The notes under the pieces: model-generated | What the model was told of the DNA's origin: nothing | The model's input: the letters and a program-made list of their open reading frames with translations, nothing else | The model's database searches: none | Shown: positions 1 through 28,035 of the stretch, piece by piece | Position numbering within the stretch: position 1 is the stretch's first letter | Layout: every line of letters begins with the position of its first letter | Translations under genes and position numbers: made by a program | DNA from: a virus | Lineage: Duplodnaviria; Heunggongvirae; Uroviricota; Caudoviricetes | Direction: 5' to 3' (one strand) | DNA: 28,035 nt | Virus record (IMG/VR): IMGVR_UViG_2563366924_000006 | Location: 1-28,035 of that record

Positions 1-159
1 AACCTGTAGAGACTTAATTTTACCCAAAGTAATACCCAGTATTTATATGGTTTTGTATATTAAATCATATGTGCCGCCGTCATGGAACACAGTTAGAAAC
101 AATGCGAAATGTTATCAAACATGATGTTCACCCTAACCCTTTTTTGAGTTGGTCATCGG

Positions 160-445
160 AAAACCGTCACAACCGTCACACCCTTTCAAAACACCTCATA
201 ACCACATGAAATAATTATCGAAAAGTTGTGACGGTAAAACCATCACAAACCGCAACAGAAACCGTCACAGAAAAAATAATTCTTAAAATTCATGTGATTA
301 AAAAATGCATATGTGATCATTATAAACCGTCACACCGTGATGGTTTTGTGATGCTTTTGTGATGGTTTTCATTTCTTGATTTATTTATATATATCATATA
401 GATAATAATACTTTTTAAACCTTGTGACGTTTGTGACGGTTTTCC
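160..445. repeat. Array of about 11 copies of a 9-bp repeat AACCGTCAC (variant AACCATCAC) in both orientations, in AT-rich non-coding DNA; candidate replication origin or arm-type protein-binding sites
   Basis: Direct copies at about 162-170, 171-179, 238-246, 259-267, 325-333; inverted copies (GTGACGGTT / GTGATGGTT) at about 228-236, 337-345, 348-356, 359-367, 424-432, 433-441. A very AT-rich stretch at about 361-420 lies between repeat blocks. No convincing ORF. Confidence 0.6.
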
Positions 446-1068
446 GATGCCCCCCCTCAAATTTTGAAAACTTCGCTATTGGCTGGATTTCACCCTGAAT
501 TGTTGGTTGTTTTGTATGTGTAAGTGTTGTGGGTTAGTTATGGTGATATCGGTGTGTGATGTACAAGTGGTGCACAGGGCTGACAGTGCAAGTCATTGCA
601 ATGGCGTAAAAGCTACCAACAAGACGCAACCCCGCACCAGATAAGGCTTTGCCAAACTCAGCCATGAACGATCGCCAATAAAATCCGTATGTCAGGAACT
701 CACGAAAACCACCTAACTCATTGTTATTATTTGTGTTGATTTTCATCCTCGAAATTTGGCCTGCCCGCTCAACTGAAATCCACTGAAATTCATTACATTC
801 TGTGCAATTGCCATTTATCTCGGAATCCCCAGCACTGGCGCGGCCTGCGGGGAGCAATTGCACAAATCCCCAACTGAAAAAACTTTATGACGCAAAGAGC
901 GCAGGCGGGTGCGGTGTAGCGCGGTTTCCGTGATGCGATTCGTTCCGTGGGTGGCTGCGGCTGCGTTTCTGCGGGCCGCTGTGGTGACGATCCTTTCTTG
1001 CCCATGCGTTGACGTGATGGCGCTTTTGCGTGGCCTGTGGTGCGTTCTGGGGGCTGTATTTGAGGTAC

Positions 1069-2809: not shown

Positions 2810-3324
2810 TAATCCACCACCTTACCAAGCGCATTATTGACGGGGTTCAATACCTTGCTTTCAAACCACGTCAGCTTCTGATCGCTTTCTTTCGCGGCGC
2901 TGCTGCTTGCGTCACCGGTGCCAGCTGATTGTTTTGCCGCTGCAGTACCATTTCGGGAATCGTTTCTTGCCTGGCGCTTTTCCGGAACGCTGTGTTTTTC
3001 ACGCAGCGTAAACTGGACACCCCAAGCCATTTTCCCATCCTGTTCCTGCGCCTCCAGCTTGCCCGCAAAATTGACCTGGCGAATGCCTACCGTGTTTGCT
3101 GTCAGGTTGGCCACACGGTAAAGTGCCAGCGCTCCACCGGCTGTCGTTGCGCTGGCCAGTGCAAAAAGACGCTTCAGCGTCTTTTCTTCAGAGAAGGGGA
3201 TCACCCCGCTTACCTGTAGCTCTTTGGCTTTAATACCCTGCTCTGCGCGGGTCGTGCTCGATGTCTGTCCTGACTGGTCTTTATCCTGATACTGCATCCC
3301 CAGCGTGACGCGCAGATTTTTCAT
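2809..3324 (-). CDS. Hypothetical tail-operon protein (about 171 aa from ATG at 3324)
   Basis: ORF track extends to 3366 through a TTG codon; the first ATG is at 3324 (MKNLRVTLGMQYQ...). Backbone-like GC. Low-complexity Ser/Ala/Gly-rich C-terminal region. No family recognised. Confidence 0.45.
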   Translation of the reverse strand: MKNLRVTLGMQYQDKDQSGQTSSTTRAEQGIKAKELQVSGVIPFSEEKTLKRLFALASATTAGGALALYRVANLTANTVGIRQVNFAGKLEAQEQDGKMAWGVQFTLREKHSVPEKRQARNDSRNGTAAAKQSAGTGDASSSAAKESDQKLTWFESKVLNPVNNALGKVVD

Positions 3325-3358
3325 GATGATGGCCTCGCCATCAAGAGCCAGAATGATG

Positions 3359-4060
3359 TTAGCCAATCATTGCCTCCAGTGCGCTCAAATCACTTCCTGT
3401 GAAAAGAATGGCTGCAGTATGTACCGCATCCGGATGAGGTAGATTTTTTACCAGCTCCACCGCTGTTGTCAGCGCCGGCCCCTTCATATTGAAAAACCAC
3501 GCTTTCGCCGTTTTCCCCTGCAATTCAGTCATTGCGCTTGCGATGTCTGCCAGTGCTGCGGTGCGCTCCTGAAGAAAACCCGCCAGCCCCGTGGTTATCG
3601 AACTCACACTGGCAGCTGCGGCCGCTTCAAGTTTTGCCGCCTCAATACGCGCAGCGTTCAATGCCTGCCGTGTCGTTTCTGTTGCGACGTTAATTGGGGC
3701 AGGTAATGCCGAAAGCACATCCGGCAGCTGCATTTTCACCTGTTCCAGTTCCCCAAAAGACTGCGCCAGCCGGCGCACCTGTTTCAACTCCGGCATGGGC
3801 AGGACTGAGGCAACGGAATCAAGGGATGAAAGTAAATCGCTGTGCGTGTTTTCGCATAGCATCATGATGATGTTGTGCGAGCCGGCCCCCTTCTCCAGCA
3901 GGCGCTTGCCCAGATAAGAGATGGCATTTAGCGGGCTGAGATAGCCCCCCGATTGGGTATGTTGGCCCAGTTCAGGCACCCATGGGTGAGCAGGGATAAC
4001 ACTGCAGGATAAAGAGGTTAATTGCGCCGGTATGCGCAAGGTGGCCTGTGTCCATGCCAT
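3359..4060 (-). CDS. Hypothetical tail-operon protein (about 233 aa from ATG at 4060)
   Basis: ORF track start at 4063 is GTG; the ATG at 4060 overlaps the TGA stop of the upstream fibre assembly gene (TGATG), suggesting translational coupling. Ala-rich predicted helical segment. No family recognised. Confidence 0.5.
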   Translation of the reverse strand: MAWTQATLRIPAQLTSLSCSVIPAHPWVPELGQHTQSGGYLSPLNAISYLGKRLLEKGAGSHNIIMMLCENTHSDLLSSLDSVASVLPMPELKQVRRLAQSFGELEQVKMQLPDVLSALPAPINVATETTRQALNAARIEAAKLEAAAAASVSSITTGLAGFLQERTAALADIASAMTELQGKTAKAWFFNMKGPALTTAVELVKNLPHPDAVHTAAILFTGSDLSALEAMIG

Positions 4061-4587
4061 CACGGGCGCTCCGGCCAGATGATTTCAGGTGCGGTACTAA
4101 TATCAAGACGGCGCAGAGCAGTACGATAAATACGCCATGCGGCGAGTTCTGCCAATTCTTCAGAAGTTATATCGCCATCATCCTGCGCTTCAGCCAGCGA
4201 GTTAATACGCGCACTGGCTAATGCCATTTCACTGTCGCGCCGCTGTGTCGCTACGGCTAGAGCATCAACAGGCACGGGAATGATTTTTCCCTGGCTAAAC
4301 AACCACTCACCCGATTCACCATTAAAAGCCTCCGGGACATCGCTCATATTGATTTCAGCGACGGAGAGATTAACTGGCCTGAGCATGGTGGCATCTGATG
4401 ATGCGGCGATAATACGACCACTATGATCATAGGTAAATTTCAACGTGTCCTCTGCAAATTGTGCACGCCGGTGATACCAGTCGATCCCCTGGTCATCTTC
4501 ACAAAATTCAATATTGAAAGATGCTTTTAAATCCTCCTGAACCGGCGTCAGGTCTGTACTAATCTTGAAGTTTTGAAAATTTTTCAT
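4060..4587 (-). CDS. G: Tail fibre assembly protein (P2 gpG-like chaperone)
   Basis: 175 aa, immediately downstream of the tail fibre gene; C-terminal region (ELAELAAWRIYRTALRRLD...) resembles the tail-fibre-assembly domain. Confidence 0.75.
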   Translation of the reverse strand: MKNFQNFKISTDLTPVQEDLKASFNIEFCEDDQGIDWYHRRAQFAEDTLKFTYDHSGRIIAASSDATMLRPVNLSVAEINMSDVPEAFNGESGEWLFSQGKIIPVPVDALAVATQRRDSEMALASARINSLAEAQDDGDITSEELAELAAWRIYRTALRRLDISTAPEIIWPERP

Positions 4588-4588
4588 T

Positions 4589-6781
4589 TTACTGCCCTAC
4601 GTTCATCCATGAACCGTTGATATTAATCTGGAGCGGGCGGCGTTGAATAATATCCACAATATCGTCAGGTGTAGTGGGAGAGTTATTTACTACGCCTGTA
4701 ATGACATATCCCAACTGATCGTTATATCCCAGCGCACGATAAATTACTGCGTTCTCTACAGCACCAAATCGTAATCCCTGCATAAATCGACCATTCGCCC
4801 AGTTATAAATATCATTGCGTAAGTCTATGTTTGCCCATGCTATCGTTGCATAGGGGCTTAAATCCTGCTGCGGTTGCGGGTTCCTGGGGGAATATACCCG
4901 CGAGCCACTTTCATAAACCACGCTGGCATTGAAAGTTCCGGCAGTGGATAAAGCGCCCTGGGGTGTACTCCATGAGAAGATTTCACGCCCTCCGGTATTG
5001 TCTTCCTGCAGGCGAATACTGGCACCATCCATTACCAGCAAAATTGTTTTGCCAGTATCAGATTCATTTAAAGCGATAGTCGGTACTGGCCCGGTAATAT
5101 CCATTGTACCTATGGCAGAAAGTCGCCCGGAGGTGCCGAGTGTATTTCCATCCCAGGAGAATGCTGTTTTACCATCACCAGTATTGTCTTCCTGCAGTCT
5201 GATCGCCGTGCCATCAGCAACCAGATAGAATTTCTTCCCGGAATCCGTTTCACTAAACACAATCGTTGGTGAACCTCCCTCCAGAGTGACTGGATAACTT
5301 GCAGAATTATTTTTAAACGTAACTGGCCCGGTAACATCCCCTCCAGCAGCGGAAAGCGCCCCAATGTTAGCCGGGGACAGCGTAATATCACGCGAGCCGT
5401 CAAAGGCAACGGTGTTGATTTTTCGTGCTGTTTCAAGTTTTTTGGCTGCTACCGCCGTTCCATCTGATGGCAGCGCCCCGACATCATCGGCAGTGGGTTT
5501 ATTGTCCGTGGTATAAAACGTCGTCCAGTTATTCCATGTATCACTGTCGCCGTTTTTTGTCCTGAGTTTTACCAGCCCCTGCTGCATATAGCTGGCGGCT
5601 AGTTGAACGTTGTAACGCCCTCCCAACCCTGAGAAATCCATAACTGAACTCTCAAACCCGGGTGAATGGGTGGCTGATGCATAAACAAAACTGACTGAGT
5701 TTTCCGGTAAATTGTTCGCATCGGTTGCAAATGAACCTGCCACACCCGATGCAACAGCCGAGCGAACAGCGAGAGCATTTCCATTAATCACAATCCGGTC
5801 AGGAGTAGTATCTTCTCTGGAAGTCTGGACATTTGCTGTCGCACCACTGCCTAACTGCAGACTCTTTCTGCTTTCTGCCGGGTCACTGAGATCACTTAAA
5901 TTTTTATCTTTGCGCAAAAAATCGTTATTTGCCTGCTGTTCCCCCTTGCTGCCTTTGGGGCGTAAGTCCGTCACGGAACCATCAGCATTGATTTGTGCGA
6001 CAGCAAAAACATAATGATTTACGTCATTTTTCACGTAATCAGCCAGCGTATCAGCCAGGGTAATCGTTGTATTAACCTGCCAGACACTGGTAAGAGTGCC
6101 GGTAAAACTGGTATCGACCCAGACTTTTACCGGTTTAGTGGCCACCGTGAGCGCCTGCTCTGCTGCCAGTACGGCACGCAACCCACCGACATAACCTGTA
6201 CCTGCAGTGACACTGTAATTGTTCCCGGATCGCTTAACCAAAAAGCCATCCCCGATAAATGCACCGGTGCCATAAACATCGATATTTTCAACCCGGTGGC
6301 GCTCATCCATCCCCGCCAGACGAGCAGTGAAATCAATCTGCCAGGTGCCTGCAGGCGTGGTGATTTGAGTTTCTTTTTTTGCCCCGTCGTACTCCATCAG
6401 AAATGAGCGCGTCAGCACGTTACCCTGAGTGCCAGCGTTGTTTTTTACCTTCTGCTGCAATGGGGCATGAACAATCATGGCCAGCGTGTTGCTGGTCTTA
6501 TCTCTCAGCCCTACCCAGTTAAATGAAAAATCGCCAACATCCGCGCCCAGCGTGATGGAATACACCACAGCGTTAGCATTCACCACACCCGTTTTTCCCA
6601 CGCTGGCGCGATGCACAATTTGCCCTGCAGTTGGCATTGCTTCAGCGGGATCGATAGGGTCTGTGATGTTCAGATTTGGAACATTGGCAAACACAAATTC
6701 ATCCAGTACAACGGGGGTATTGGCTGCAGCCTGTTGCGCTTTTAGCGCCTCAAAAGCTGTGGTGATAACGGTCTGTGACAT
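4589..6781 (-). CDS. H: Tail fibre protein (P2 gpH-like)
   Basis: 730 aa. N-terminus SQTVITTAFEALKAQQAAANTP and C-terminus NINGSWMNVGQ resemble the conserved N- and C-terminal ends of P2 gpH (recalled KYINGTWYNVAQV); Gly/Thr/Ser-rich repetitive central region. Confidence 0.85.
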   Translation of the reverse strand: MSQTVITTAFEALKAQQAAANTPVVLDEFVFANVPNLNITDPIDPAEAMPTAGQIVHRASVGKTGVVNANAVVYSITLGADVGDFSFNWVGLRDKTSNTLAMIVHAPLQQKVKNNAGTQGNVLTRSFLMEYDGAKKETQITTPAGTWQIDFTARLAGMDERHRVENIDVYGTGAFIGDGFLVKRSGNNYSVTAGTGYVGGLRAVLAAEQALTVATKPVKVWVDTSFTGTLTSVWQVNTTITLADTLADYVKNDVNHYVFAVAQINADGSVTDLRPKGSKGEQQANNDFLRKDKNLSDLSDPAESRKSLQLGSGATANVQTSREDTTPDRIVINGNALAVRSAVASGVAGSFATDANNLPENSVSFVYASATHSPGFESSVMDFSGLGGRYNVQLAASYMQQGLVKLRTKNGDSDTWNNWTTFYTTDNKPTADDVGALPSDGTAVAAKKLETARKINTVAFDGSRDITLSPANIGALSAAGGDVTGPVTFKNNSASYPVTLEGGSPTIVFSETDSGKKFYLVADGTAIRLQEDNTGDGKTAFSWDGNTLGTSGRLSAIGTMDITGPVPTIALNESDTGKTILLVMDGASIRLQEDNTGGREIFSWSTPQGALSTAGTFNASVVYESGSRVYSPRNPQPQQDLSPYATIAWANIDLRNDIYNWANGRFMQGLRFGAVENAVIYRALGYNDQLGYVITGVVNNSPTTPDDIVDIIQRRPLQININGSWMNVGQ

Positions 6782-6799
6782 TTTTTCTTCCCTGAAATC

Positions 6800-7333
6800 T
6801 TATTTTGATGCGGTATAAACCACGTAATCACCGGTGAACCACCCGGCACGAACATCCAGCTCGTTAATGGTGATCACTTCATAATCATAGCGGCGGCAGG
6901 TTCGGCCATACTGGCGAATAATTTCCCGTAACAGTGCGCCGTTCGCCGCTATCTGGCCATCACTCACCCGGATGGTGATAACGTCCCAGTCCTTTCCCTG
7001 CTGCCGTTCCTGAAGCTCCACATAACCGATACCCAGCCGATGAAATATCGCAATAAATCCTTCGACGCTGCCGGCATCACGCGCATTTATCCATGCATAG
7101 GCCACACGCTTGCGAAACAAATCGAGAGGCTCGCCACTGAAACGGGTGATATCCCGCTCCCATGCCAGCAGATTCAGGAGGGCTTCCGGGCACGTCAGGG
7201 GGTCGAACTGTTTTGATGGCCATAACAACCAGTCATACAGCCATTGCCAGAACTTTTTGCAGGCGGTCAGCAACTTTGCCAGCTCGCCTTTGTCCATCCA
7301 GAACGGGAGTTTTAGCTTAGAAAAATCAGGCAT
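6800..7333 (-). CDS. I: Baseplate protein, P2 gpI-like
   Basis: 177 aa (P2 gpI is 176 aa); motif DPLTCPEALLNLLAWERD resembles recalled P2 gpI DPDTCPANLLPWLAWAFSVDRW; lies between J-like and H-like genes as in P2. Confidence 0.7.
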   Translation of the reverse strand: MPDFSKLKLPFWMDKGELAKLLTACKKFWQWLYDWLLWPSKQFDPLTCPEALLNLLAWERDITRFSGEPLDLFRKRVAYAWINARDAGSVEGFIAIFHRLGIGYVELQERQQGKDWDVITIRVSDGQIAANGALLREIIRQYGRTCRRYDYEVITINELDVRAGWFTGDYVVYTASK

Positions 7334-8507
7334 TCTTCAGCTCCACAGTAAGCGATGTCAGGCGCGGCACTTCCAGCTGGCTGGTGATGTCTTTGATGGA
7401 AAACTCCACCGAATCGACACCGCTCAGTAATTCGTGCAACTCCCTGCCAAGCTGTGAAAATGAGAAACGCGAATAAGGCCATGTCTTCACCACATCCCAG
7501 GCAGTATTTTCACGAAATGCGCAACGGATCAGGCTTTCGACATCACTTTTTAGCGCGGCTTGCGCTTCATCGCTTAGGTTGGAAAGATTGACCACGTACA
7601 CCGTTGCCGTCAGGTCACGGTGCGTTTCGGGCATGGCCATGCATTGCATATCATCGCCATGGCCGTGATGCCCCTGCGTATTGATAAAATCATTGACCGC
7701 ATCAATAAACGGCTGCGATGCCTGACCACTGTCGAGCAGCAGATATGCGTTTGCCGTACCGGGCCCGCGCGGTGCGTCATGCTTAAAGAAGATGCGATCC
7801 ACTGACAGCGCCACCACTTCCGCAATCATGCTGCGGTAAATCGCATCGGTATGATAATTACCTACCAGGTTGAACTGGTTGCGGCAACGTTCGCGCAGTT
7901 CATCATCTGATTCGTCATCGCCACCCGGTTGCGTCAACCAGTCATCCTCTGTCACCGCGCTGGCAATGCCAGGCACGGCCACCGGCAGAATACGGTAATA
8001 ACCGGGTGCCAGATTCCATGCAGCCCCCGCGCCATTGGCCTGTACTGGCACCAGAGCTGAAGCGACGTTTGCCGGGATGATTGTGTCAGCGGTGACGGCA
8101 AGCTGATAAATAACGCCATTAATCCGCTCAGTCTGCACAACCGTACCGGCTGGCACTGTTGCCACCTGGCCGGCGGTAATTTTGGTAAAACGCACTACCC
8201 CCTGCGCCGCGCTGGCGGGTTTCGGTGTGACATTCAGCCCCCACGCCAGCAGACGCAAAAGCGAGCCGGTCGCAGTGGCCACAAACATGTTGGCCATGAC
8301 AATGTTAATCAGCGCACTGATGATCCACATCACCGGCGTGGTGATTAGTGCCGTGACCAGACGCCAGAACGGAGACATGCGGGAGGTATTCGTCACAAAC
8401 CCCTCGGCTTTCACCAGGCGGTTAAATTCCGCTTTTACGGCTTCTTCAGTAACCGGCATTCCTGCATCCTGCAGGACTTTTTCAAAATCAGCCTTCGGCT
8501 TTTCCAT
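7326..8507 (-). CDS. Baseplate J-like protein (gpJ / gp6 family)
   Basis: Contains the Baseplate_J-type acidic motif GGDDESDDELRERCRNQ. Start placed at the ATG at 8507, which has a strong GAGGGAG ribosome-binding site; the ORF track extends it to 8549. Confidence 0.75.
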   Translation of the reverse strand: MEKPKADFEKVLQDAGMPVTEEAVKAEFNRLVKAEGFVTNTSRMSPFWRLVTALITTPVMWIISALINIVMANMFVATATGSLLRLLAWGLNVTPKPASAAQGVVRFTKITAGQVATVPAGTVVQTERINGVIYQLAVTADTIIPANVASALVPVQANGAGAAWNLAPGYYRILPVAVPGIASAVTEDDWLTQPGGDDESDDELRERCRNQFNLVGNYHTDAIYRSMIAEVVALSVDRIFFKHDAPRGPGTANAYLLLDSGQASQPFIDAVNDFINTQGHHGHGDDMQCMAMPETHRDLTATVYVVNLSNLSDEAQAALKSDVESLIRCAFRENTAWDVVKTWPYSRFSFSQLGRELHELLSGVDSVEFSIKDITSQLEVPRLTSLTVELKNA

Positions 8508-8829
8508 AATCCACTCCCTCGGATAGCGGCCCAAAATCATAGGTATCACCGGTGATAAGCAGCCTGGTCAGGCTTTCTTCTTCCACCTCTACCGTTCCCG
8601 GAACAATCCTTTCATCACCTTCTACCAGCAGGATTATCTGGGTGAAAATGTCGCTGCGCAGTGTCGGGCTGCGCTCTGCAATTAACGCTGTAGCCAGACC
8701 GCTTTCCATCACCGCATGTACCAGGTCCTGCCCAATGCTGTAGCGGTTATTGCAGGTCATTGGCTCATTGCCGGCATTCAGCACGATATCGCCGCCGGTG
8801 ATGAGCAAATCTATAAATAAATCACTCAT
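8488..8829 (-). CDS. Small baseplate protein, possibly gpW/gp25-like
   Basis: About 113 aa from the ATG at 8829, which overlaps the tape-measure stop (ATGA). Size and position before the J-like gene match gpW; sequence resemblance is weak. Confidence 0.4.
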   Translation of the reverse strand: MSDLFIDLLITGGDIVLNAGNEPMTCNNRYSIGQDLVHAVMESGLATALIAERSPTLRSDIFTQIILLVEGDERIVPGTVEVEEESLTRLLITGDTYDFGPLSEGVDYGKAEG

Positions 8830-19230: not shown

Positions 19231-21003
19231 ATGGCACAAAAATATTCGGACGAAATCAGGGCAGTGGCGCGGCAGCTGTACCTGAAGCGATGGACACCGC
19301 AGGAAATCAAAGAGGAATTAAAACTCCCTTCAGTACGCATCGTTTATTACTGGGCTGAAAAATTCAGCTGGCGGGACATGCTCAGTGAAGAAGGAGTAGA
19401 AGCAGCTCTGTCACGCCGTATTCAGTTACTGACAGACCGGGATAAAAAGACAGATACCGACCTGCGAGAACTGGATCAGCTCGTTGGCCATCACGTCAAA
19501 ATCATGGCGCAGCGGGCAAAACGAGAAGAAAAGCTGCAGCAGCTGCAGAACGGCAATGTGACCACAAATAGCGGTGTCACCCTCACTGATGAGGGTAACA
19601 AGCAGGAGCGCAAAGGCCGCAAAAAGAAAAATGACATCAGCCATCTGACGGCAGAATCTTTTGCAGAATGGGTTTCTGTGCTGTTTGGCTACCAGCTGAC
19701 ATTGCGTGAGAACCTGCATCAGAAAATCCGCAACATCCTTAAAGCTCGCCAGTTAGGTGCAACCTGGTATTTTGCCGGTGAAGCACTGGAAGATGCCGTA
19801 TTAAACGGCAAACCGCAGGTGTTTTTGTCAGCGTCAAAGCGCCAGGCTGAGGTGTTCCGCTCTTACATAGTCAACATTGCCCAGCAATTTCTGGGTGTCG
19901 AACTGACAGGAAACCCCATCCGACTGAGCAACGGCGCAGAACTGAGTTTTCTCGGTACCAACAGCAACACGGCCCAGTCCAACAGCGCCAACGTCTATAT
20001 AGACGAGTATTTCTGGATACCGAAATTCCGCAAACTCAATGACGTGGCAAGTGCGATGGCCACGCACGACAAATGGCGGTTGACCTACTTTTCCACACCC
20101 AGCTCAAAAGCTCATGAAGCCTACCCGTTCTGGACTGGCGATGAATGGCGTCGCGGTCGGGCCGAACGAAAGGACGTTGTATTCCCGAAAGAAGCAGAGC
20201 TGCGTGATGGCGGTCGTCTGTGTCCGGATAAACACTGGCGTTTCATCGTCACTATTGAAGATGCCGTAAAAGCAGGATTTAACCTGGCGAACGTGGATGA
20301 CCTGCGCGACCGCTACAGCGGCCCGGCGTTCGACATGCTGTTTATGTGCGTGTTTGTCGATGATAAAGACGCCGTTTTTGCCTTCGACCAGTTAATGAAG
20401 TGCGGCACCGAACCAGCGTTATGGCAGGACTTTAAACAGGATGAGGCAAGGCCATTTGGCAACAGGGAGGTGTGGGGTGGCTATGACCCCAGTCGCACGA
20501 CGGACAGGGCCATTTTTGTGATTGTTGCACCACCTATTCACGCCGTTGAAAAATTCCGCTTGCTGAAGAAATGGGCCTGGACTGGTCTGTCTTTCAAGTA
20601 CCAGGCAGAACAAATCAAAAAAATCAAAGAACAATACAACCTGACGTACATCGGTATTGATGTGACGGGCATTGGTGCCGGCGTGTTCGACATTGTCAGT
20701 GCATTCGCCCCACGTGAAACAGTTCCCATTCATTACAGCGTGGAAAGCAAGAACCGTCTGGTACTGAAAATGATTGATACCGTTGTCGGCAACCGTATCG
20801 AGTGGGACAGGGAAGATAAGGACATTGCCGCCAGCTTTATGGCCATCAAGCGCACCACAACCAGCAGCGGCAATGCCATGACCTTTGTCGCCACACGATC
20901 AGTTGAAACCGGTCACGCAGACGATTTCTGGGCCATATCTCATGCAATGATTAATGAGCCGCTGAATACCGAACATAAACGCAAATCAAGATGGATTTTG
21001 TGA
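19231..21003 (+). CDS. P: Terminase large (ATPase) subunit, P2 gpP-like
   Basis: 590 aa, the same length as P2 gpP; AGGA ribosome-binding site; followed by the portal gene with a 13-nt overlap. Confidence 0.9.
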   Translation: MAQKYSDEIRAVARQLYLKRWTPQEIKEELKLPSVRIVYYWAEKFSWRDMLSEEGVEAALSRRIQLLTDRDKKTDTDLRELDQLVGHHVKIMAQRAKREEKLQQLQNGNVTTNSGVTLTDEGNKQERKGRKKKNDISHLTAESFAEWVSVLFGYQLTLRENLHQKIRNILKARQLGATWYFAGEALEDAVLNGKPQVFLSASKRQAEVFRSYIVNIAQQFLGVELTGNPIRLSNGAELSFLGTNSNTAQSNSANVYIDEYFWIPKFRKLNDVASAMATHDKWRLTYFSTPSSKAHEAYPFWTGDEWRRGRAERKDVVFPKEAELRDGGRLCPDKHWRFIVTIEDAVKAGFNLANVDDLRDRYSGPAFDMLFMCVFVDDKDAVFAFDQLMKCGTEPALWQDFKQDEARPFGNREVWGGYDPSRTTDRAIFVIVAPPIHAVEKFRLLKKWAWTGLSFKYQAEQIKKIKEQYNLTYIGIDVTGIGAGVFDIVSAFAPRETVPIHYSVESKNRLVLKMIDTVVGNRIEWDREDKDIAASFMAIKRTTTSSGNAMTFVATRSVETGHADDFWAISHAMINEPLNTEHKRKSRWIL

Positions 21004-22034
21004 TGAGCAGAAAGAATAAAAAGCAGCCTGTTACCGCCGAAAACACCGCGCCGGCGCAGCAAAAAATGTCGATGATCTCTTTTGGCAATCCGGAGCGGGC
21101 TATCCTAAATCCGCTCGAGTACGAGCCGGTCTATTTTGACAGTTCCAGCATGTACTACACGCCGCCGGTCAACCGACTGGCACTTGCAGAACTGCCCGAT
21201 ATTAACGGCCAGCATGGCGGCATATTGCGAGCCAGAACCAACATGATCACCGCCGATTTAATCAGTGGTGGCGGTATGCTTCAGGATGATATTCAGGCCA
21301 CAGTGTTAAACCTGCTGACTTTTGGGGATGTGGGGTTGCTCAAATTGCGTAACGCATTCGATAAAGTCATTGGCCTGCTGCCCCTGCCCTCGCTCTATAC
21401 CCGCCGCGGTAAAAACGGAAAGTTTTATGTGCTTCAGAAAAGTGGCCATCTGGAATATGCCAGCGCAGACATTATCTTTGTGAAGCTGTATGACACACGC
21501 CAGCAGGTCTACGGTAAACCGGATTATCTCGGCGGCATTCACTCTGCCATGCTCAATAATGAGGCCACTATTTTCCGTCGTCGCTATTACAAGAACGGCG
21601 CTCATCTTGGGTACATCCTTTACACCACTGACCCGAACATGACAGATGAAATGGAAGATGAGATGAAGGAACAAATTGCTGCAGGTAAAGGTGTCGGTAA
21701 CTTTAAATCAATGCTGATTAACATCCCGAACGGAAAGGAAAAAGGTGTGCAACTGCTCCCGGTCAGCGATATGGGGGCAAAAGATGAGTTTGTTAACATC
21801 AAAAATATCAGCATGCAGGATATTTTGAACGCTCACCGCTTCCCACCAGGCCTCGCCGGTATGATGCCGAACAATAACAGCTCATTCCCCGACATCACGA
21901 AAACCCGCGACGCATACCAGCGTGATGAAGTGATCCCGGTGCAAAAACTCATTAGCGATGCTGTGAACACAGATAAGGAAATACCCGCAAACTTGCGCAT
22001 TAATTTTGCACAATCAAAGCCGAACGAGGCATAA
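20991..22034 (+). CDS. Q: Portal protein, P2 gpQ-like
   Basis: 347 aa (P2 gpQ is 344 aa); EATIFRRRYYKNGAHLGYILYTTDP closely matches recalled P2 gpQ AATLFRRRYYLNGSHMGYILYLTDP. Confidence 0.9.
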   Translation: MDFVMSRKNKKQPVTAENTAPAQQKMSMISFGNPERAILNPLEYEPVYFDSSSMYYTPPVNRLALAELPDINGQHGGILRARTNMITADLISGGGMLQDDIQATVLNLLTFGDVGLLKLRNAFDKVIGLLPLPSLYTRRGKNGKFYVLQKSGHLEYASADIIFVKLYDTRQQVYGKPDYLGGIHSAMLNNEATIFRRRYYKNGAHLGYILYTTDPNMTDEMEDEMKEQIAAGKGVGNFKSMLINIPNGKEKGVQLLPVSDMGAKDEFVNIKNISMQDILNAHRFPPGLAGMMPNNNSSFPDITKTRDAYQRDEVIPVQKLISDAVNTDKEIPANLRINFAQSKPNEA

Positions 22035-22095
22035 TAGCGTGAAAATTAATCATAAGAAGTATTATCGGTTACCGTCAAACGCAAGGAGCAGAGGT

Positions 22096-22356
22096 ATGCG
22101 CATTAAATGTCCTGAGTGTGGATCAAGAGCGATTATTAAAACAACAAATCCAATCCACCCTCAGCTTTCCGAACTCTACTGCGCCTGTGGCGATGTGAAT
22201 TGTGGCCATACATATGTTTTGCAGGTGTCGTTTAAACATACGTTAAGCCCGAGCAGAAAATCACTTGATGATTTACTGGTGGGGTTGATTGGCTCGCTCG
22301 GCCAGAAACAAAAGGCCGAGCTAATCAGCCGGCTGAGTCACTCAGCTGCAGCATAG
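22096..22356 (+). CDS. ogr: Ogr/Delta-family zinc-finger late transcription activator
   Basis: From the ATG at 22096 (AAGGAG ribosome-binding site): MRIKCPECGSRAIIKTTNPIHPQLSELYCACGDVNCGHTY, matching the Ogr Cys pattern (recalled P2 Ogr CPLCQHAAHARTSRYITDTTKERYHQCQNVNCSATF). The ORF track start at 22006 is a TTG. Confidence 0.85.
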   Translation: MRIKCPECGSRAIIKTTNPIHPQLSELYCACGDVNCGHTYVLQVSFKHTLSPSRKSLDDLLVGLIGSLGQKQKAELISRLSHSAAA

Positions 22357-22376
22357 ATATAACTTACCGCCCTTTC

Positions 22377-25031
22377 CTATTTATCCCGACTGAACACCCA
22401 GCAGCGGAATGTTTCTGGCATTCGCTGCATTTCCCCTTTGCCCTTGTTCGCCCGTTCGCTAACCGCACTACGTTTCGTCGTTTGGCCTATGAAACGTCGC
22501 TCACTGCTGCTTTTAAGGAGTTTTTTGATTTCCGTTAATGTGAAATTCATACGCTGCCGGTGAGCTGCGGCGACTTCCTCCATGTGATTAAAGTTAACGG
22601 CTATTTCACTGTCATCTGTTGAATGATTTATACCGAACGGCGCAAGTTCATCAAGATAATCAAACAGCTCCCAGAACTCCTGAACAAGTGGATGATCCTT
22701 TTTGAGTGCATGGCAGCGCTCGATGGCCAGCGCGGTGATGGCTTCACGTGTTTTATGAATACGGTCAACAGAAAGAGGCACAACAAGCGCCAGCGCTTCG
22801 AGCAACCCCGCTAATTGAGCATGGTTTTTCGCTACACGGATATGACGAATATCAGGGTGTGTTTCCAGTTCATTACGGGCGCGTTCATAACCACGGCCAT
22901 AAGCTTCCAGCACTTCCTGTTCTCGCATAATGGACTGCAGAGTAAAGCCTGAAACCTGGCTAACCGGTATTTGCTCAAGGCGTTCAGCTGCGTGGCGGGT
23001 ATGAATAGACTGGCCACGTTTATCGGTATAGATATGAATGATACGCTCCAGAAATGCCTTGCTGCCGTCTGTATCCGCATTCTGTGCTATCACGATAGCG
23101 CCCCGGAATGGCGGCTCGTATGTCTCGTTATTGTTAGATTTGATACCCACGGCGCGGGATGCGCGACCGTTATAAAGGGATTTCAGCTCATCCCAGTCAA
23201 AAGCGCGCTGTTTAGCATTATCCGTGGTGCGGTCACCTTCTATCAGCACTACAGGCAAATTCCCTACCTGTGCAAAGTTACGGCCACGCGCTGCAGGTGT
23301 AGATTTTGACGGGTCAAAACCTTCATATTCTTCACGGCCAGCAAGCTTCCAGAGAAATTCTATCAGGGTAGATTTACCCGTGCCGGGTTCACCGACAATT
23401 TCCAGAAACGGGAAAGATTTATCACGCTCGCGTATCTGTTCAGCAAATAACGAACCCAGCCAGAACGCCAACGCCACATATCCTTTTTCACCAAATGCCG
23501 TCCAGATATCATCCACCCAACCCGTAGTGAACTCATTCAATTTTGGATTTAGATCCAGTGATGGCGTTAGGCTCAGACTTTTAACGCTGGCACTGTTGAT
23601 TTCGAAATAATCCTCATCGTTCATCTCATACAGCTTGCCACTGCAGACCGCCACTCGGTTAAACAACCAGGCTGAATAATCTTTGTTATAGCCGATAAAA
23701 TTCTGCGTTTTCACTTCTTTGATTTCTGGAAGCCGCAACTGGATAAACTTATCCAGCTGTTTGGTACTGCCGGTGTAAACCGCACCTTTAGCAATATGCA
23801 AAAGGCGCTTTTTAAATTCTGCAGAGCTGGTCAGTTGATTCGCAGTAAACGTGTCCTTAATCGCGGGGTGATTGGGCATATTTACTTTCACGTAATACCA
23901 AGATTCATCCGTCGGCTCAGAGCGCTGGTAATACAACGGAGTCAGCCAGCAGTTGGCGATTTCAGTCACGCAGCCAGATTCTTTCACTGCCCGCGCCTTG
24001 GCTTCCCATTCCATCACCACTTCCTGCCCGGAATTAGCGATACGGTCATAGGCTCTCATGTATCTGTCCAGGTCCAGTTCGAACCAGTACATGCGGGAAC
24101 CATGCTCAAAATAGAAGGAATGCCACTCATTATGCTGATGCATCAGCAGGGCTTTTTCAGTCGGGCTTTTTGCCAGCAGAAGATCGCCAAAATAACGATA
24201 GTTTTTGATGTCCGATTTGCTAAATCTGTCGCGGATTAGCAGGTCATTCCAGTCAAGTTCAACTGCTGTTTTGAGCGGCTGCGCCGCCCGGACATCCCAG
24301 CCAGCAGACTTGCTGCGTGATGCAAATGAAAGGGTGTGTTTCGTTCCGGCCTTATCGCCATCAAAGGCCCAAACCAGACGTGGCCGGGGTTTCTCACCCA
24401 GTTCTTTAGCCAGCGCATCGAGCGAGGCCAGAGGATAGTTATTGCTACTGAGTGTAGCCACAGCGGGTAAACCGGCCTGGCATAAACTGAGAGCGTTAAA
24501 AATACCCTCAGTTATCCAGATTTCTTTTGCATCAGGCAGGTGGATAAACGGCGGCACCCACCAGTGACCACCGTAATTGCCTGAGAAATGCGCCTTCTGT
24601 TTGAAACGGTCTGGCTGGTCAATGATGCGCTCCCATGTAGCGCCGTTGGCCAGCTTAAATTTAACAGTGGCACTACCCAGCCCATGACGGACAAACGCGC
24701 CCTGGGTAAAACAACCTTTGAGAATGTCAGTATCAAGGCCACGCGCTTCACGTAAATACGCTTCTGCCGCAGCAGCCGGTGATTCGACTGTTGCGACATA
24801 CCGCTTTGACCAGTCCTCAAAAATATCGGAATACAGCTCTTTGACTGCGACCTCCTTACCGCATTTATTTTCACGGCCACATTTAAGAAGCCAGGGCTTT
24901 TCCGCACTGGTAAATAGTTCGCGTTTCTGGCAAGCAGGGCAAACACCCTGCTGTAAATATTTATCTTTCTCTTTAAATTCAAAATCATTAATGAGACGGC
25001 GAACAACTTCCTGTTGTATGGATACGTTCAT
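22377..25031 (-). CDS. Phage P4 alpha-type primase-helicase replication protein
   Basis: 884 aa; N-terminal zinc-ribbon (CPACQ...CGRENKCG), primase/Toprim-like acidic region (EGIFNALS, WAFDGDKAG), Walker A GEPGTGKST in the central helicase-like domain, long C-terminal domain. Confidence 0.85.
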   Translation of the reverse strand: MNVSIQQEVVRRLINDFEFKEKDKYLQQGVCPACQKRELFTSAEKPWLLKCGRENKCGKEVAVKELYSDIFEDWSKRYVATVESPAAAAEAYLREARGLDTDILKGCFTQGAFVRHGLGSATVKFKLANGATWERIIDQPDRFKQKAHFSGNYGGHWWVPPFIHLPDAKEIWITEGIFNALSLCQAGLPAVATLSSNNYPLASLDALAKELGEKPRPRLVWAFDGDKAGTKHTLSFASRSKSAGWDVRAAQPLKTAVELDWNDLLIRDRFSKSDIKNYRYFGDLLLAKSPTEKALLMHQHNEWHSFYFEHGSRMYWFELDLDRYMRAYDRIANSGQEVVMEWEAKARAVKESGCVTEIANCWLTPLYYQRSEPTDESWYYVKVNMPNHPAIKDTFTANQLTSSAEFKKRLLHIAKGAVYTGSTKQLDKFIQLRLPEIKEVKTQNFIGYNKDYSAWLFNRVAVCSGKLYEMNDEDYFEINSASVKSLSLTPSLDLNPKLNEFTTGWVDDIWTAFGEKGYVALAFWLGSLFAEQIRERDKSFPFLEIVGEPGTGKSTLIEFLWKLAGREEYEGFDPSKSTPAARGRNFAQVGNLPVVLIEGDRTTDNAKQRAFDWDELKSLYNGRASRAVGIKSNNNETYEPPFRGAIVIAQNADTDGSKAFLERIIHIYTDKRGQSIHTRHAAERLEQIPVSQVSGFTLQSIMREQEVLEAYGRGYERARNELETHPDIRHIRVAKNHAQLAGLLEALALVVPLSVDRIHKTREAITALAIERCHALKKDHPLVQEFWELFDYLDELAPFGINHSTDDSEIAVNFNHMEEVAAAHRQRMNFTLTEIKKLLKSSSERRFIGQTTKRSAVSERANKGKGEMQRMPETFRCWVFSRDK

Positions 25032-25071
25032 ATTTAATCCAGATGAAAATAATTCAACGAAAAGGCAAAAA

Positions 25072-25290
25072 TCAGAATTTTATCTGTTTGTTATACCGCT
25101 CATGCGTCATTAATACCCAACGCTGACCTTTATCTTTACTAAGTAAACGCCAGCGTAAAGAAACATGAATAGATAAGTAATGTTTTGGTTTAATGACCTG
25201 ATAAACTTTTCTGCCATCGTAGTATTCACTAAGCATTGAAAATGACTTGTTAATGACATTTTCATTTGCATGAGAAGTCACAATTAACAT
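25072..25290 (-). CDS. Small basic hypothetical protein (54-72 aa) in the AT-rich cargo block
   Basis: ORF starts immediately after the stop of the exonuclease gene; very AT-rich; no clear ribosome-binding site; no family recognised. Confidence 0.3.
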   Translation of the reverse strand: MLIVTSHANENVINKSFSMLSEYYDGRKVYQVIKPKHYLSIHVSLRWRLLSKDKGQRWVLMTHERYNKQIKF

Positions 25291-25292
25291 AG

Positions 25293-25853
25293 CTATTTCA
25301 CACTGTTTTTTATGCCAAGGAACATCCAGATATAAGAAACAATTTTGATATTATGAAGCGCATGTGCCAGTGAGTTACGCTGAAAGTCATATTTAATAAT
25401 GCTATTCATATTCAGCCCAAGTTCTTCTGCTATTGTCACCATGGTAATGACACTCTGCTCATTAGCTTCAAGAAAACACTGACCGGCGAACCTGTCCAGG
25501 TAATGATGTATCACCTTGCTATGCATGGACGGACAACCAAACCAGGTCTTGACGTATTTGGCATCAGAATTTTCAATGATAAACCCGTACAGGTCACAGA
25601 TAGCCAGCTCAATATCCTGACAATCATCATCCAGTATCTGACTGCGAACCTCTGAAGGCTGACGTAACCACCACTGGATAGCGTGGGCACTTACCGTACC
25701 GCCATTACTCATACAGTCATCAAGGCTGATACGTCTGTAGAATTGCTTACCAACCTCCCCAGTTGTAGGGTCAAAGAAAACGGCGCTTAAACCCGTAATA
25801 GCTGCGGTGTGCTTTTCGTCCATCAGTTCTACATCAATCATTAAATGTTGCAT
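25293..25853 (-). CDS. 3'-5' exonuclease, T4 DexA-like (DEDD-type)
   Basis: From the ATG at 25853 (AAGGA ribosome-binding site): MQHLMIDVELMDEKHTAAITGLSAVFFDP... resembles the recalled T4 DexA N-terminus (DFETMG..EKAAVIDLSVIAFDP); second block HAIQWWLRQPSEVRSQI versus STIEWWKNQSPEARKNI. The ORF track N-terminal extension to 25973 is hydrophobic and lacks a ribosome-binding site. Confidence 0.65.
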   Translation of the reverse strand: MQHLMIDVELMDEKHTAAITGLSAVFFDPTTGEVGKQFYRRISLDDCMSNGGTVSAHAIQWWLRQPSEVRSQILDDDCQDIELAICDLYGFIIENSDAKYVKTWFGCPSMHSKVIHHYLDRFAGQCFLEANEQSVITMVTIAEELGLNMNSIIKYDFQRNSLAHALHNIKIVSYIWMFLGIKNSVK

Positions 25854-25866
25854 GTGGATATCCTTA

Positions 25867-26199
25867 TCAGGAAACGTGGCGAGAATTGGAGGAAGTATTA
25901 CGCTTACGCGCAACACTATTAGCAGCCAGAGATATAAGGCCGGGAACACTGCTTTCTTCAGGAACCTGACCACTGAACACCATTAATGTGATGGTGTGCA
26001 ATTCTTCATAGTCTGTTATGTCATTATTAAAATGCGCAGATGACGAAATACCTTCAAGGCATTTTGCCAATTTGATATTCAACTCCATCAACTGCAAAGC
26101 ATCGCTATGAATAGCTGACTGGTCAGTATTGATGTTTTCAATTTGATTATGATAATTCTGCAACAAACTACGAATTATCGTGGCGTATTTTGCTTTCAT
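25867..26199 (-). CDS. Hypothetical early protein (about 110 aa) in the AT-rich cargo block
   Basis: First gene after cox on the same strand; AT-rich; basic Ser-rich C-terminus; start uncertain (ATG at 26199 or GTG at 26232); no family recognised. Confidence 0.35.
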   Translation of the reverse strand: MKAKYATIIRSLLQNYHNQIENINTDQSAIHSDALQLMELNIKLAKCLEGISSSAHFNNDITDYEELHTITLMVFSGQVPEESSVPGLISLAANSVARKRNTSSNSRHVS

Positions 26200-26275
26200 A
26201 ATTAACCCAAAGAATAAATTATTCAATATCACGAATGCTTTTAGAATTACTCACCCATGAGAACACGAGTGATTT

Positions 26276-26572
26276 TTATTGTTTCGCATTCTGCTGTTTC
26301 ATTTTTTCAGTAGTGAATAGGCGGTTTTTCCAGTCATGCCACTCAGGCGGGGCATTCTGTGCCAAGTGGGCAACATATGCATCCCACTCACCTTTATGAA
26401 TATAAACCTCGCCACCTTTTTTTGATGGGTTTAAAGGGTCTTTCATTCGGATTACCGGCAATTTACCAGCTGTCGCCATTTTTCGAATTGCTGCCGGAGT
26501 TTTACCTACATATGCAGCAAAAAGTTCTGGCGTCACAAGGTCTGAAAGCGCGTTTTCGGCTAGTTCTTTCAT
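26276..26572 (-). CDS. cox: Cox-like excisionase / early regulatory protein
   Basis: 98 aa; ...AAIRKMATAGKLPVIRMKDPLNPSKKGGEVYIH...PPEWHDWKNRL resembles recalled P2 Cox (GAVRRMIDKGKLPVIDMTDPQSASGRAGEYWVY...IRDGWLMWLGL); GGAGGA ribosome-binding site; divergent from C. Confidence 0.85.
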   Translation of the reverse strand: MKELAENALSDLVTPELFAAYVGKTPAAIRKMATAGKLPVIRMKDPLNPSKKGGEVYIHKGEWDAYVAHLAQNAPPEWHDWKNRLFTTEKMKQQNAKQ

Positions 26573-26670
26573 CTGTGGTATCCTCCATCAGTTTGGGTTC
26601 CTAAGGCGTTTTAAGTCGTCCTAGGGTTTATTTAGTCAGAAATAACTGACCTAATGATAGTCAGAAGGTT
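26573..26670. promoter_or_regulatory. Lysis-lysogeny switch region between cox (-) and C (+), with candidate operator repeats
   Basis: 98-bp AT-rich intergenic region; direct repeats TAGTCAGAA at about 26633-26641 and 26658-26666 (25 bp centre to centre), a related TAAGTCGTC at about 26612, and a small palindrome GTCAG-N6-CTGAC at about 26635-26650. Confidence 0.6.
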
Positions 26671-26976
26671 ATGACCATGTCAATGAGCTATGCTCAAAAA
26701 TTAAAGAGTATCCGTGCAGCAGAAGGGCTAACGCAAAAACAGCTGTCAGAGCTAACAGGCGTAAGTTTGGGAATGATTAAAAACTACGAAAGTGAACAGC
26801 ATCCAGCTGGCGTTCAGACAGTTGAAAAAGTGATACAGGTCGAAAGGTTCGAAAAATATACACTCTGGTTAATGACGGGAAAAACAGCCCCTGCAGCGGG
26901 TCAAGTTTCTCCGCCTCTCTCCCCTGATGGGCAAGACAAAATAAAATCGCGCCCCTCAGACCAGAAAACTGGCTAA
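26671..26976 (+). CDS. C: Immunity repressor, P2 C-like
   Basis: 101 aa (P2 C is 99 aa); FEKYTLWLMTGKTAPAAGQVSPPLSPDGQ...SDQKTG resembles recalled P2 C FTKYTLWFMTNQIAPESGQIAPALAHFGQ...SGQKTG; HTH-like segment LTQKQLSELTGVSLGMIKNYE. Confidence 0.85.
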   Translation: MTMSMSYAQKLKSIRAAEGLTQKQLSELTGVSLGMIKNYESEQHPAGVQTVEKVIQVERFEKYTLWLMTGKTAPAAGQVSPPLSPDGQDKIKSRPSDQKTG

Positions 26977-27042
26977 TTATCTGGTTTTTCTATTCTTTAT
27001 CACAAAAATTACACAATGATTTTAACATCGGAGGGCTTCGCT

Positions 27043-28035
27043 ATGTCGATTAAGAAGCTTGATGATGGTCGTTTTGAAGTGGATGTAAGACCGCGCGGGA
27101 CTTCAGGAAGAAGAATCCGGCGTAAATTTGACAGAAAGGCAGAGGCCCAGACATTTGAGCGGTACGTACTGACAAACTTTCACGATAAAGAATGGCAGGA
27201 CAAACCGGCAGATCAAAGGCTCGTATCTGAATTGATTACTTTATGGTGGAGTTATCACGGGAAAAATCACAACTATGGTGATTCTTACCGAAAGCGTCTG
27301 GAGAAGATCCACCGCGAAATGGGCGAACCCAGAATCTACATGCTGACCCGTAACTTTTTGATGAAGTATCGCGCTACCAGGTTGCAAAGCGGTGTATCAG
27401 CAGGAACGGTAAACAGAGATTTCAGTGCTATGTCCAGCATGTTTAGCCTGCTGATCGACATGGAAGAATTCCACCATGAAAATCCCTTCCATAGCGTGCG
27501 TAAGCTGAAACTGGAAAACACAGAAATGTCGTTCCTGTCAGAGGATGAAGCTCGGGAATTGCTGAATGCTTTGACTGATGATGACCGCAGAGTTGTAGTC
27601 CTCAGCCTGAATACAGGTGCGAGGTGGGGGGAAGCCAGCAATCTCAAGGCTGAACATGTTATCAGTAATAAGGTGACTTTTGTGAAGACCAAAACAGGCC
27701 CAGCGCGTACCGTTCCGGTTTCACAGGAGGTTGCTGATTATATCCTCACCCGGAAATCAGGAAAGCTTTTTAAAACTGACTACCAGCGCGTTCGTGAGGT
27801 GCTTCGTAAGATAAAGCCCGATTTACCTAAAGGTCAGGCACTGCATGTTTTGCGGCACACCTTCGCAACTCATTTCATGATCAATGGCGGGAATATCATT
27901 ACCCTTCAGAGAATACTGGGGCATACAACGATTGAGCAAACCATGACGTACGCTCACTTTGCCCCGGACTATCTGGCTGATGCAATCAGGTTTAATCCCA
28001 TGAAAGGGAGTGTCCATATAACGTCCACTGACTAG
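27043..28035 (+). CDS. int: Tyrosine integrase, P2 Int-like
   Basis: 330 aa from the ATG at 27043 (GGAGGG ribosome-binding site): MSIKKLDDGRFEVDVRPRG... resembles recalled P2 Int MAIKKLDDGRYEVDIRP; catalytic region LSLNTGARWGEASNLKAEHV, HVLRHTFATHFMINGG and the Tyr in TMTYAHF; TAG stop is the last codon of the window. Confidence 0.9.
   Translation: MSIKKLDDGRFEVDVRPRGTSGRRIRRKFDRKAEAQTFERYVLTNFHDKEWQDKPADQRLVSELITLWWSYHGKNHNYGDSYRKRLEKIHREMGEPRIYMLTRNFLMKYRATRLQSGVSAGTVNRDFSAMSSMFSLLIDMEEFHHENPFHSVRKLKLENTEMSFLSEDEARELLNALTDDDRRVVVLSLNTGARWGEASNLKAEHVISNKVTFVKTKTGPARTVPVSQEVADYILTRKSGKLFKTDYQRVREVLRKIKPDLPKGQALHVLRHTFATHFMINGGNIITLQRILGHTTIEQTMTYAHFAPDYLADAIRFNPMKGSVHITSTD

Follow-up and report, generated by a model that had tools for sequence, protein, structure and literature searches.

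Membership of the P2-like phages need not imply rolling-circle replication of the P2 type. In the viral DNA analysed here (the window: all 28,035 nucleotides, positions 1 to 28,035, of IMG/VR virus record IMGVR_UViG_2563366924_000006, Caudoviricetes), a P2-like prophage carries, where P2 has its A and B genes, an uninterrupted open reading frame (ORF) of exactly 884 amino acids (aa) on the minus strand at 22377-25031. Its product, called the replicase below, joins a DnaG-type primase to a predicted AAA+ helicase, and the catalytic residues of both are intact. A dyad array of short repeats, or iterons, stands at 154-449, and arrays of the same plan are consistently paired with this replicase family across relatives. 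We consider it highly likely that the replicase is a single, self-contained primase-helicase initiator acting with this array as its origin.

The P2-like frame of the prophage is evident from its switch, head and packaging genes. P2 proteins align to the window in tblastn searches (identities of 53% for int, 39% for C, 33% for cox, 31% for ogr, 36% for Q, 45% for P and 32% for N), and Phage_Cox, Ogr_Delta and Int_N are among its Pfam matches. A 90%-identical relative (L004) matches Phage_portal, Terminase_6, Phage_GPO_N, Phage_cap_P2, Phage_term_smal and Phage_GPL. The prophage thus has the Q-P and O-N-M-L head and packaging cluster and the P2-type int, C, cox and ogr of Peduoviridae; a preliminary description of the same DNA had called its integrase, C, cox, ogr and head genes P2-like. 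That description had also noted the lack of the gpA/gpB module, and this holds: in six-frame tblastn searches of the window, P2 A, B and orf78-91 gave nothing better than E = 0.1, P2 A having no match below E = 0.29, and a Phage_GPA domain (PF05840) is found in none of the early-region proteins, the 884-aa protein included. As a positive control, P2 A itself matches this domain at E = 1.8e-124; identity of the replicase as a gpA-family relaxase is therefore not supported. Nor does a gpA or gpB gene lie just outside the window. Positions 1-12809 are 100% identical to Escherichia coli assembly GCA_000351345.1 (L005), in which an acyltransferase gene and then raiA, bamD and rluD follow beyond window position 1, and on the other side the integrase gene of L004 abuts pheA, tyrA and aroF. 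The prophage is inserted between pheA and raiA.

Synteny places the replicase in the slot of the missing module. The window reads int - C - cox - orf121 - exonuclease - orf72 - replicase - (convergent ogr) - Q - P, against int - C - cox - orf78 - B - ... - A - ... - Q - P in P2, so that both modules occupy the early operon downstream of cox and upstream of the portal gene, among the same int, C, cox, ogr and head neighbours. The module swap that had been proposed is thus real. The two modules differ in kind: gpA, a nicking initiator of the Phage_GPA, HUH type whose ori lies within the A gene, is unrelated to the replicase, and gpB, a loading factor for the host helicase DnaB, has no homologue in the window. 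The expected mode would change accordingly, from a rolling circle started at a nick in P2 to theta replication from an iteron origin here. The swap itself is not new, the same replicase family being present in phiCTX and other classified Peduoviridae and in databases since phiCTX. The tail, moreover, is of another origin: P2 FI (sheath) and D have no tblastn match in the window, and the tail proteins (window 1112-15359; L004 and L005) belong to the HP1_Orf24, HP1_ORF34, DUF2590, DUF2586/E217_gp31_N and Baseplate_J families. As a mosaic, the phage thus combines a head and switch of P2 type with an HP1/phi3-type tail and a replicase of phiCTX type. Among complete E. coli genomes, window 1-3000 has no megablast match, and window 20000-28035 has matches of 58% coverage at ~79% identity.

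Profile searches identify the primase half of the replicase directly. Toprim_2 and Toprim_3 match residues 171-266 (Pfam, E ~ 1e-10), phrog_1139 ("DNA primase") covers the protein end to end (PHROG, E = 0), and an NCBIfam search returned a weak dnaG domain match and none to any P4-family primase model. The helicase half gives a sub-threshold P-loop match to DUF5906 (residues 545-653; 22 bits against a cut-off of 27.6). The single protein matched no PDB sequence at E <= 1; with the family profile as query, DnaG alone was matched, weakly. Residue conservation was assessed in a 38-sequence family alignment with homologues 48-86% identical, where the zinc-ribbon cysteines C31, C34, C51 and C57 are all invariant, as are Toprim residues E175, D224 and D260-W-N262 and, in the ATPase, Walker A G547/G552/K553/T555, Walker B E598/D600 and Q650-N651. 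A zinc-binding domain and an RNA-polymerase domain with the Toprim acidic residues, the features of a DnaG-type primase, are both present. The preliminary description had read the ORF as an 884-aa zinc-ribbon, primase and Walker-A protein, and the intact frame, the Toprim hidden Markov models (HMMs) and the invariant cysteine, Toprim and Walker residues bear it out. The structure of the protein was predicted with high confidence (predicted local distance difference test score, pLDDT, of 85.8).

Conservation is unevenly distributed along the protein. The AAA+ core is the best-conserved domain of the family (97% identity to Escherichia phage ESSI2_ev239, 38-66% to distant relatives) and variation is greatest in the C-terminal ~180 residues (14-38% identity to distant relatives). 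This pairing fits a role of the C-terminus as a specificity domain. Its location, aa 701-884, is also that of the iteron-binding winged-helix domain in Cch and in the Rep proteins of Staphylococcus aureus pathogenicity islands (SaPIs), by comparison with published work (PMC9371898), and the C-terminal domain would accordingly bind origin DNA as a specificity reader.

The preliminary description had assigned the protein to the P4 alpha type, and this stands for function and layout, not for family membership. P4 alpha consists of a DnaG-type primase, a helicase and a C-terminal origin-binding winged-helix domain (PMC4889955). It shares with the replicase this functional architecture, a homologous Toprim primase domain and a collinear order of zinc ribbon, Toprim, P-loop and C-terminal domain; the P4 origin, with ori and crr, and the putative one of the window are built of short iterons in both orientations, and in each case one protein is expected to serve as initiator, helicase and primase. 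Both proteins match DUF5906 and carry EG...DxD...DWND Toprim motifs, and BLASTP yields two collinear alignments, one over the Toprim domain (P4 alpha aa 207-293, E = 6e-4) and one over the Walker A region (E = 2e-3). Yet nothing else aligns, and the domains by which P4 alpha itself is recognised, Zn_Ribbon_Prim (PF08273, E = 1.9e-18), D5_N (PF08706, E = 4.7e-12) and Pox_D5 (PF03288, E = 3.6e-16), are all unmatched in the replicase even at E <= 10, its four-cysteine ribbon notwithstanding. Alignment by hhalign to a P4 alpha profile, itself shallow because all homologues returned were at least 85% identical, was limited to Toprim (E = 1.6e-4, probability 50%), and P4 was not among the tblastn matches in the phage collection. 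P4 also has an ori and crr pair where the window has a single dyad array, and no Cnr homologue was recognised in the window. With the lack of an NCBIfam P4-family match and a fold ranking that already argues otherwise, it is unlikely that the protein is a true P4 alpha/D5 primase-helicase (superfamily 3, Primase_Cterm/D5_N) acting as P4 alpha does on ori and crr.

The fold comparison points instead to helicases of staphylococcal elements. The predicted model has the three tiers of Cch and SaPIbov1 Rep (N-terminal domain, AAA+ core and C-terminal winged-helix domain), and other helicases score much lower: 12.1 for SaPI5 PriRep, 10-11 for MCMs, 10.8 for vaccinia D5 and 7.3 for SV40 T antigen. 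The Foldseek ranking agrees, and a viral structure library returns Toprim and DUF927-type proteins. A published split separates Cch (DUF927, like SaPIbov1 Rep, MCM-like) from Cch2 (Primase_Cterm/D5_N, like SaPI5 Rep and numerous primase-helicase fusions) (PMC7581432). By predicted structure, the helicase half of the replicase lies on the Cch/SaPIbov1 Rep side rather than on that of P4 alpha. Helicases of the Cch/SaPI Rep kind self-load, with no separate loader (PMC9371898, PMC7581432), and recognise iterons by means of their C-terminal winged helix; in SaPI origins, an AT-rich centre is flanked by iterons that face opposite ways on its two sides (PMC9371898). The window array follows the same logic, with five iterons against six and a 12%-GC core. 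Fusions of DnaG or archaeo-eukaryotic (AEP) primases to DUF927-type helicases have been noted before as a class of phage replication proteins with no characterised members (PMC4889955). The differences are nonetheless several: Cch and SaPIbov1 Rep have no detectable sequence similarity to the replicase, SaPIbov1 has a separate Pri where the DnaG-type primase is here fused into the helicase polypeptide, the element is a P2-like phage of Gram-negative hosts unlike the SCCmec and SaPI elements that bear Cch and SaPIbov1 Rep, and its putative origin is not adjacent to the replicase gene.

The preliminary description had pointed to a repeat array at 160-445 as a possible origin, which, judged by comparison with relatives, it very probably is. 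With one mismatch allowed, AACCRTCACA has 14 matches in the window, 11 of them within 162-441, and none of 100 shuffled sequences reached 14. Five iterons point one way (163, 172, 239, 261, 326) and six the other (227, 336, 347, 358, 423, 432). The two ends of the array (154-172 and 431-449) are exact inverted copies of each other over 19 bp, and each bears two tandem iterons spaced by 9 bp. Between iterons lies 366-419, where AT content over 50 bp is the highest in the window, and its block TATATATCATATAGATAA is conserved in ESSI2_ev239. The DnaA-box and integration host factor (IHF) consensus sequences show no enrichment and no site inside the array, which is compatible with independence from host initiators and is no proof of it.

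Comparison with ESSI2_ev239 (Peduoviridae, genus Evevirus), the closest phage, with the synteny and iteron motif of the window, shows selective conservation of both proposed partners: no other DNA is as well conserved as the array and the replicase region (~76% each, against ~66% for structural genes), the array has kept its iterons while its spacers have changed, and the sequences on either side of it cannot be aligned. Same-plan dyad arrays, each with its own iteron, occur in every complete relative genome examined (table). The iterons differ, ACCRTCACA in the window being replaced by AAATTACC/GGTAAT in phiCTX and CCGGAACA in phi3, and so does the position, which is distal and near att in the window and in phiCTX but directly downstream of the replicase gene in phi3, where the array begins 66 bp past the stop codon and the gene separates it from int. 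Of 80 IMG/VR relatives, L029, L031-L034, L037 and L039-L041 have arrays of 9-13 iterons at a distance of 200-1300 bp downstream of the replicase gene; that of L029, too, has the gene between itself and int. The enterobacterial arrays have a common plan, which reads from left to right as a G-tract, a CGGAAAAC-like block, two iterons at 9 bp, an AT-rich block, an inner iteron cluster that includes a head-to-head pair, a second AT-rich block, three iterons in inverted orientation and then a further inverted two at 9 bp, a TTTTCCG-like block and a C-tract. The iteron itself varies among GTCACA, GTTACA and CTTACA. The end formed by CGGAAAAC and two iterons at 9 bp recurs in L029, L031 and L032, with a close variant in L034, and the ends of the L029 array are recognisably homologous to those of the window. 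As controls, the scan recovered P4 ori and crr and found nothing comparable in P2. The scan for exact 7-mers gave nothing convincing in RSY1, whose array was revealed by an inverted-repeat search.

From these elements a replication scheme can be proposed. Upon derepression the replicase would be made from the early (cox) operon, its C-terminal domain would bind the iterons of the dyad array and the protein would melt the adjacent 12%-GC stretch, then load itself as two oppositely oriented hexameric rings, with its own DnaG-type domain priming both strands. With the forks taken over by the host polymerase, replication would be origin-dependent and bidirectional (theta), instead of starting, as in P2, from a gpA nick at an internal ori and proceeding as a rolling circle that needs gpB and DnaB. 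Theta replication would yield monomeric circles, which would suit P2-type terminases. Iteron binding, self-loading, priming and the theta mode are functions we infer for the protein.

Several observations weigh against this proposal. The theta mode is suggested by analogy with other systems. No experimental study of the replicase family or of the array, phiCTX orf37 and its R3 repeats included, was found in the literature searched. The DUF927 HMM has no match to the replicase at E <= 10, and no profile match links it to Cch or Rep. No simple correlation was seen between C-terminal sequence and iteron type, and no specificity residues could be assigned: L037 and L039 have near-identical C-terminal segments and different iterons (GTCACA against GTTACA). 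The exact-7-mer scan detected no array in many GC-rich IMG/VR relatives, where it may be degenerate or lie beyond the DNA scanned. Finally, the window array is not beside the replicase gene and lies near the att end, in territory where Int, Cox, IHF or terminase sites could be expected, and its phiCTX equivalent sits between attP and cos.

This last point raises the question of whether the array is a set of recombination or packaging sites (Int arm sites, Cox boxes, IHF sites or a terminase cosB-like site) and not an origin. In the excised circle it falls beyond int, attP and the acyltransferase gene and before the tail genes, the phiCTX array has annotated IHF sites, and cos is next to attP in HP1 and phiCTX (PMC2771037). 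Furthermore, P2 has its cos after Q and its ogr after gene D next to attP, whereas in the window ogr directly follows the portal gene, overlapping the end of that gene, and converges on the replicase gene with ~20 bp between stop codons, which leaves no room for a P2-style cos. The P2/phiCTX-type cos motif GGCGNGGCGGGG is not enriched in the window and has no convincing site there, and no P2-type cos was seen near the portal gene. We still judge this interpretation improbable, given that the arrays of phi3 and L029, the latter with ends homologous to those of the window, lie downstream of the replicase gene and away from int, and that those of L031-L034, L037 and L039-L041 are similarly close to it. 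Eleven dyad iterons around a 12%-GC core are typical of origins and unlike P2 Int and Cox sites, the array has no IHF consensus, and a separate CGTCCACA cluster right after int in ESSI2_ev239 fits att arm sites better. That cluster, 5-6 repeats in both orientations directly downstream of the integrase gene (L001, 26741-26965), is distinct from the iteron array and probably an attP arm or core region, whose counterpart lies outside the window. The gene-adjacent arrays of relatives disfavour an att or cos function of the window array; as an additional role it is possible, since no cos site was located in the window and phiCTX has its array between attP and cos.

The protein could also be thought of as a Toprim and ATPase factor of defence or anti-defence, with replication left to host functions or an unrecognised gene. 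The region between A and the portal gene of P2 is a defence hotspot (PMC13586616) that houses Old, a Toprim/ATPase protein, and in PADLOC the Toprim part of the replicase has weak local matches among the DnaG-like modules of DRT systems. These matches span only ~100 Toprim residues, however, with no full-length defence model, and the domain order differs, OLD having an ATPase followed by Toprim where the replicase has a zinc-binding domain, a full DnaG RNA-polymerase domain and a hexameric-helicase fold. The replicase is moreover the sole early gene common to all lineages compared, an iteron array is present in every complete genome examined, and the prophage has no other candidate initiator; a defence role is accordingly very hard to credit. 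One qualification applies to the earlier statement that this is the only replication protein, as the early operon encodes a further nucleic-acid enzyme, an Rv2179c-like 3'-5' exonuclease.

The replicase family extends well beyond enterobacterial phages. Full-length homologues are encoded by ESSI2_ev239 (86% identity), Ralstonia phage RSY1 (47%), Pseudomonas phages phiCTX (orf37, 41%), Dobby (41%) and phi3 (30%) and Stenotrophomonas phage Smp131 (40%), and all of these phages, whose "DNA primase" is of the phiCTX orf37 type, have P2-like genomes without gpA, like the window. In a large protein collection, 915 clusters matched at E <= 1e-5 among 8000 candidates scored, many of them labelled "toprim domain-containing protein" or "bifunctional DNA primase/helicase". 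A plasmid collection gave five matching records, four with full-length relatives, all of them phage-like or phage-plasmid records that provide no independent evidence for a plasmid replicon. One of these (L012, Azospirillum sp. TSH100 plasmid p2, NZ_CP039641.1) is a 54-kb circular "plasmid" with a 44%-identical replicase that also has tail, tape-measure and lysozyme genes, ParA and a RepA-type initiator, and resembles a phage-plasmid equipped with two replication systems; the part of the record scanned showed no iteron array. In phi3 (L014), a reverse transcriptase gene at 1071-2756, next to the integrase gene and att-proximal, is possibly a retron or DRT-type defence gene.

On balance, we lean slightly towards a broader view, in which the protein and its ~300-bp dyad array would form a complete, portable one-protein replicon (a DnaG primase, a Cch/MCM-like self-loading helicase and an origin reader) that has spread as a cassette across many Peduoviridae lineages, repeatedly replacing gpA/gpB, with diversified iteron specificity (GTCACA, GTTACA, CTTACA, GGTAAT, GGAACA) and an origin that can be adjacent to the gene or kilobases from it. 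In that case, this would be the first Gram-negative phage-borne helicase of the Cch/SaPIbov1 Rep class with a defined origin, and a convenient minimal E. coli system for double-hexamer self-loading. Independently of this view, a branch of Peduoviridae that includes E. coli prophages has a fused primase-helicase and a putative iteron origin of its own, forming a well-conserved and easily cloned candidate origin-initiator pair for work in E. coli. In large surveys where gpA served as a core marker, P2-like prophages are described as "missing the primase" (PMC13586616), and the replicase family is a plausible reason for some of these cases. Current concepts are unchanged, the gene being routinely annotated as DNA primase or primase/helicase in classified phages; our additions are modest, namely a helicase half with a predicted likeness to Cch and SaPIbov1 Rep, which may tie the replication of staphylococcal islands to that of enterobacterial phages, and a conserved dyad origin definable for the family. 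No paper on either was found in the literature searched, which was limited to open access.

Table. Features of the window and iteron arrays of relatives (positions in the window unless a phage is named)
Feature	Position	Strand	Basis or remark
Putative origin, dyad array of 11 iterons	154..449	.	consensus ACCRTCACA
Left terminal arm CATCGGAAAACCGTCACAA	154..172	+	first iteron of outer tandem pair (9-bp period; second ends at 180)
Candidate DNA-unwinding element	366..419	.	12-13% GC; between inner iteron cluster and outer right pair
Right terminal arm TTGTGACGGTTTTCCGATG, then C7 tract	431..456	+	C7 tract at 450-456
ogr/delta-type zinc-finger activator	22006-22356, probably 22096-22356	+	Pfam Ogr_Delta
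Replicase gene, fused DnaG-type primase and predicted self-loading AAA+ initiator helicase	22377..25031	-	phrog_1139 family
Replicase aa 701-884, C-terminal domain	22380..22931	-	helical and beta-alpha-alpha-beta; putative winged-helix-like origin-binding specificity domain
Replicase aa 501-700, AAA+ ATPase core	22932..23531	-	Walker A GEPGTGKST (547-555), Walker B VVLIEGD (594-600), sensor-1 Q650-N651
Replicase aa 271-500, helicase N-terminal tier	23532..24221	-	mixed alpha/beta; within the stretch superposing on Cch and SaPIbov1 Rep
Replicase aa 81-270, DnaG-type RNA-polymerase domain including Toprim	24222..24791	-	E175, D224-x-D226, D260-W-N262
Replicase aa 1-80, zinc-ribbon domain	24792..25031	-	C31-x2-C34 ... 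C51-x5-C57
72-aa ORF (orf72) immediately upstream of replicase gene, ParE-like fold family	25072..25290	-	ParE_like E = 9e-15 (Pfam); phrog_1525 E = 2e-28
3'-5' exonuclease (DEDD, Rv2179c-like), probably 186 aa from internal ATG at 25853	25293..25853	-	Pfam E = 5e-50
cox homologue, first gene of early operon	26276..26572	-	Phage_Cox E = 3e-25 (Pfam); 33% to P2 Cox
Early (Pe-like) promoter candidate for cox - orf121 - exonuclease - orf72 - replicase	26654..26683	-	consensus match only
ESSI2_ev239 (L001) iteron array	28385-28655 of ESSI2_ev239		
phiCTX array	35100-35390 of phiCTX		annotated only "R3 repeats" with IHF sites; AAATTACC / GGTAAT
Smp131 array	33029-33354 of Smp131		
RSY1 array	7-301 of RSY1		
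Halomonas phage array	196-470 of Halomonas phage		
phi3 array	7394-7725 of phi3		CCGGAACA, ~17 copies

The remaining genes of the early operon are less widely shared than the replicase. Expression of the operon would start in the C/cox intergenic region, where TTGACA-18-TATCAT matches a sigma-70-like consensus at 11 of 12 positions and is placed like Pe of P2. The exonuclease, orf72 and orf121 are common to the window and ESSI2_ev239 only, the exonuclease and orf72 being absent from phiCTX, RSY1, Smp131 and phi3. Taken mechanically, the exonuclease ORF has 226 aa from a GTG start (25293-25973, minus strand) and overlaps orf121; the annotation in L004 has 186 aa. Proofreading, RNA primer processing and anti-defence are candidate roles for it. 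The product of orf72 is 74% identical to that of an unannotated ESSI2_ev239 ORF (L001:23854-24069); this ParE-like ORF has no obvious antitoxin partner, and its position recalls that of P4 cnr.

On the att side, the window ends short of the prophage end, the Acyl_transf_3 gene lying just outside position 1 and followed by raiA (L005:11698-14372). This gene encodes 373 aa, or 364 aa from an alternative start, and is probably an O-antigen acetyltransferase carried as accessory cargo; ESSI2_ev239 has an O-acetyltransferase at the equivalent place. From the array to the tail-operon terminator (a GCCCGCGCGCGGCGGGC hairpin at ~1075-1091), the region 534-1100 has short ORFs only (109, 70, 61 and 99 aa), which have no Pfam, PHROG or PADLOC match, and the region is without similarity to ESSI2_ev239. 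Small repeats of TCAACTGAAA occur in it at 769, 779 and 870, and two 11-bp segments (801-811 and 854-864) form a perfect palindromic pair.

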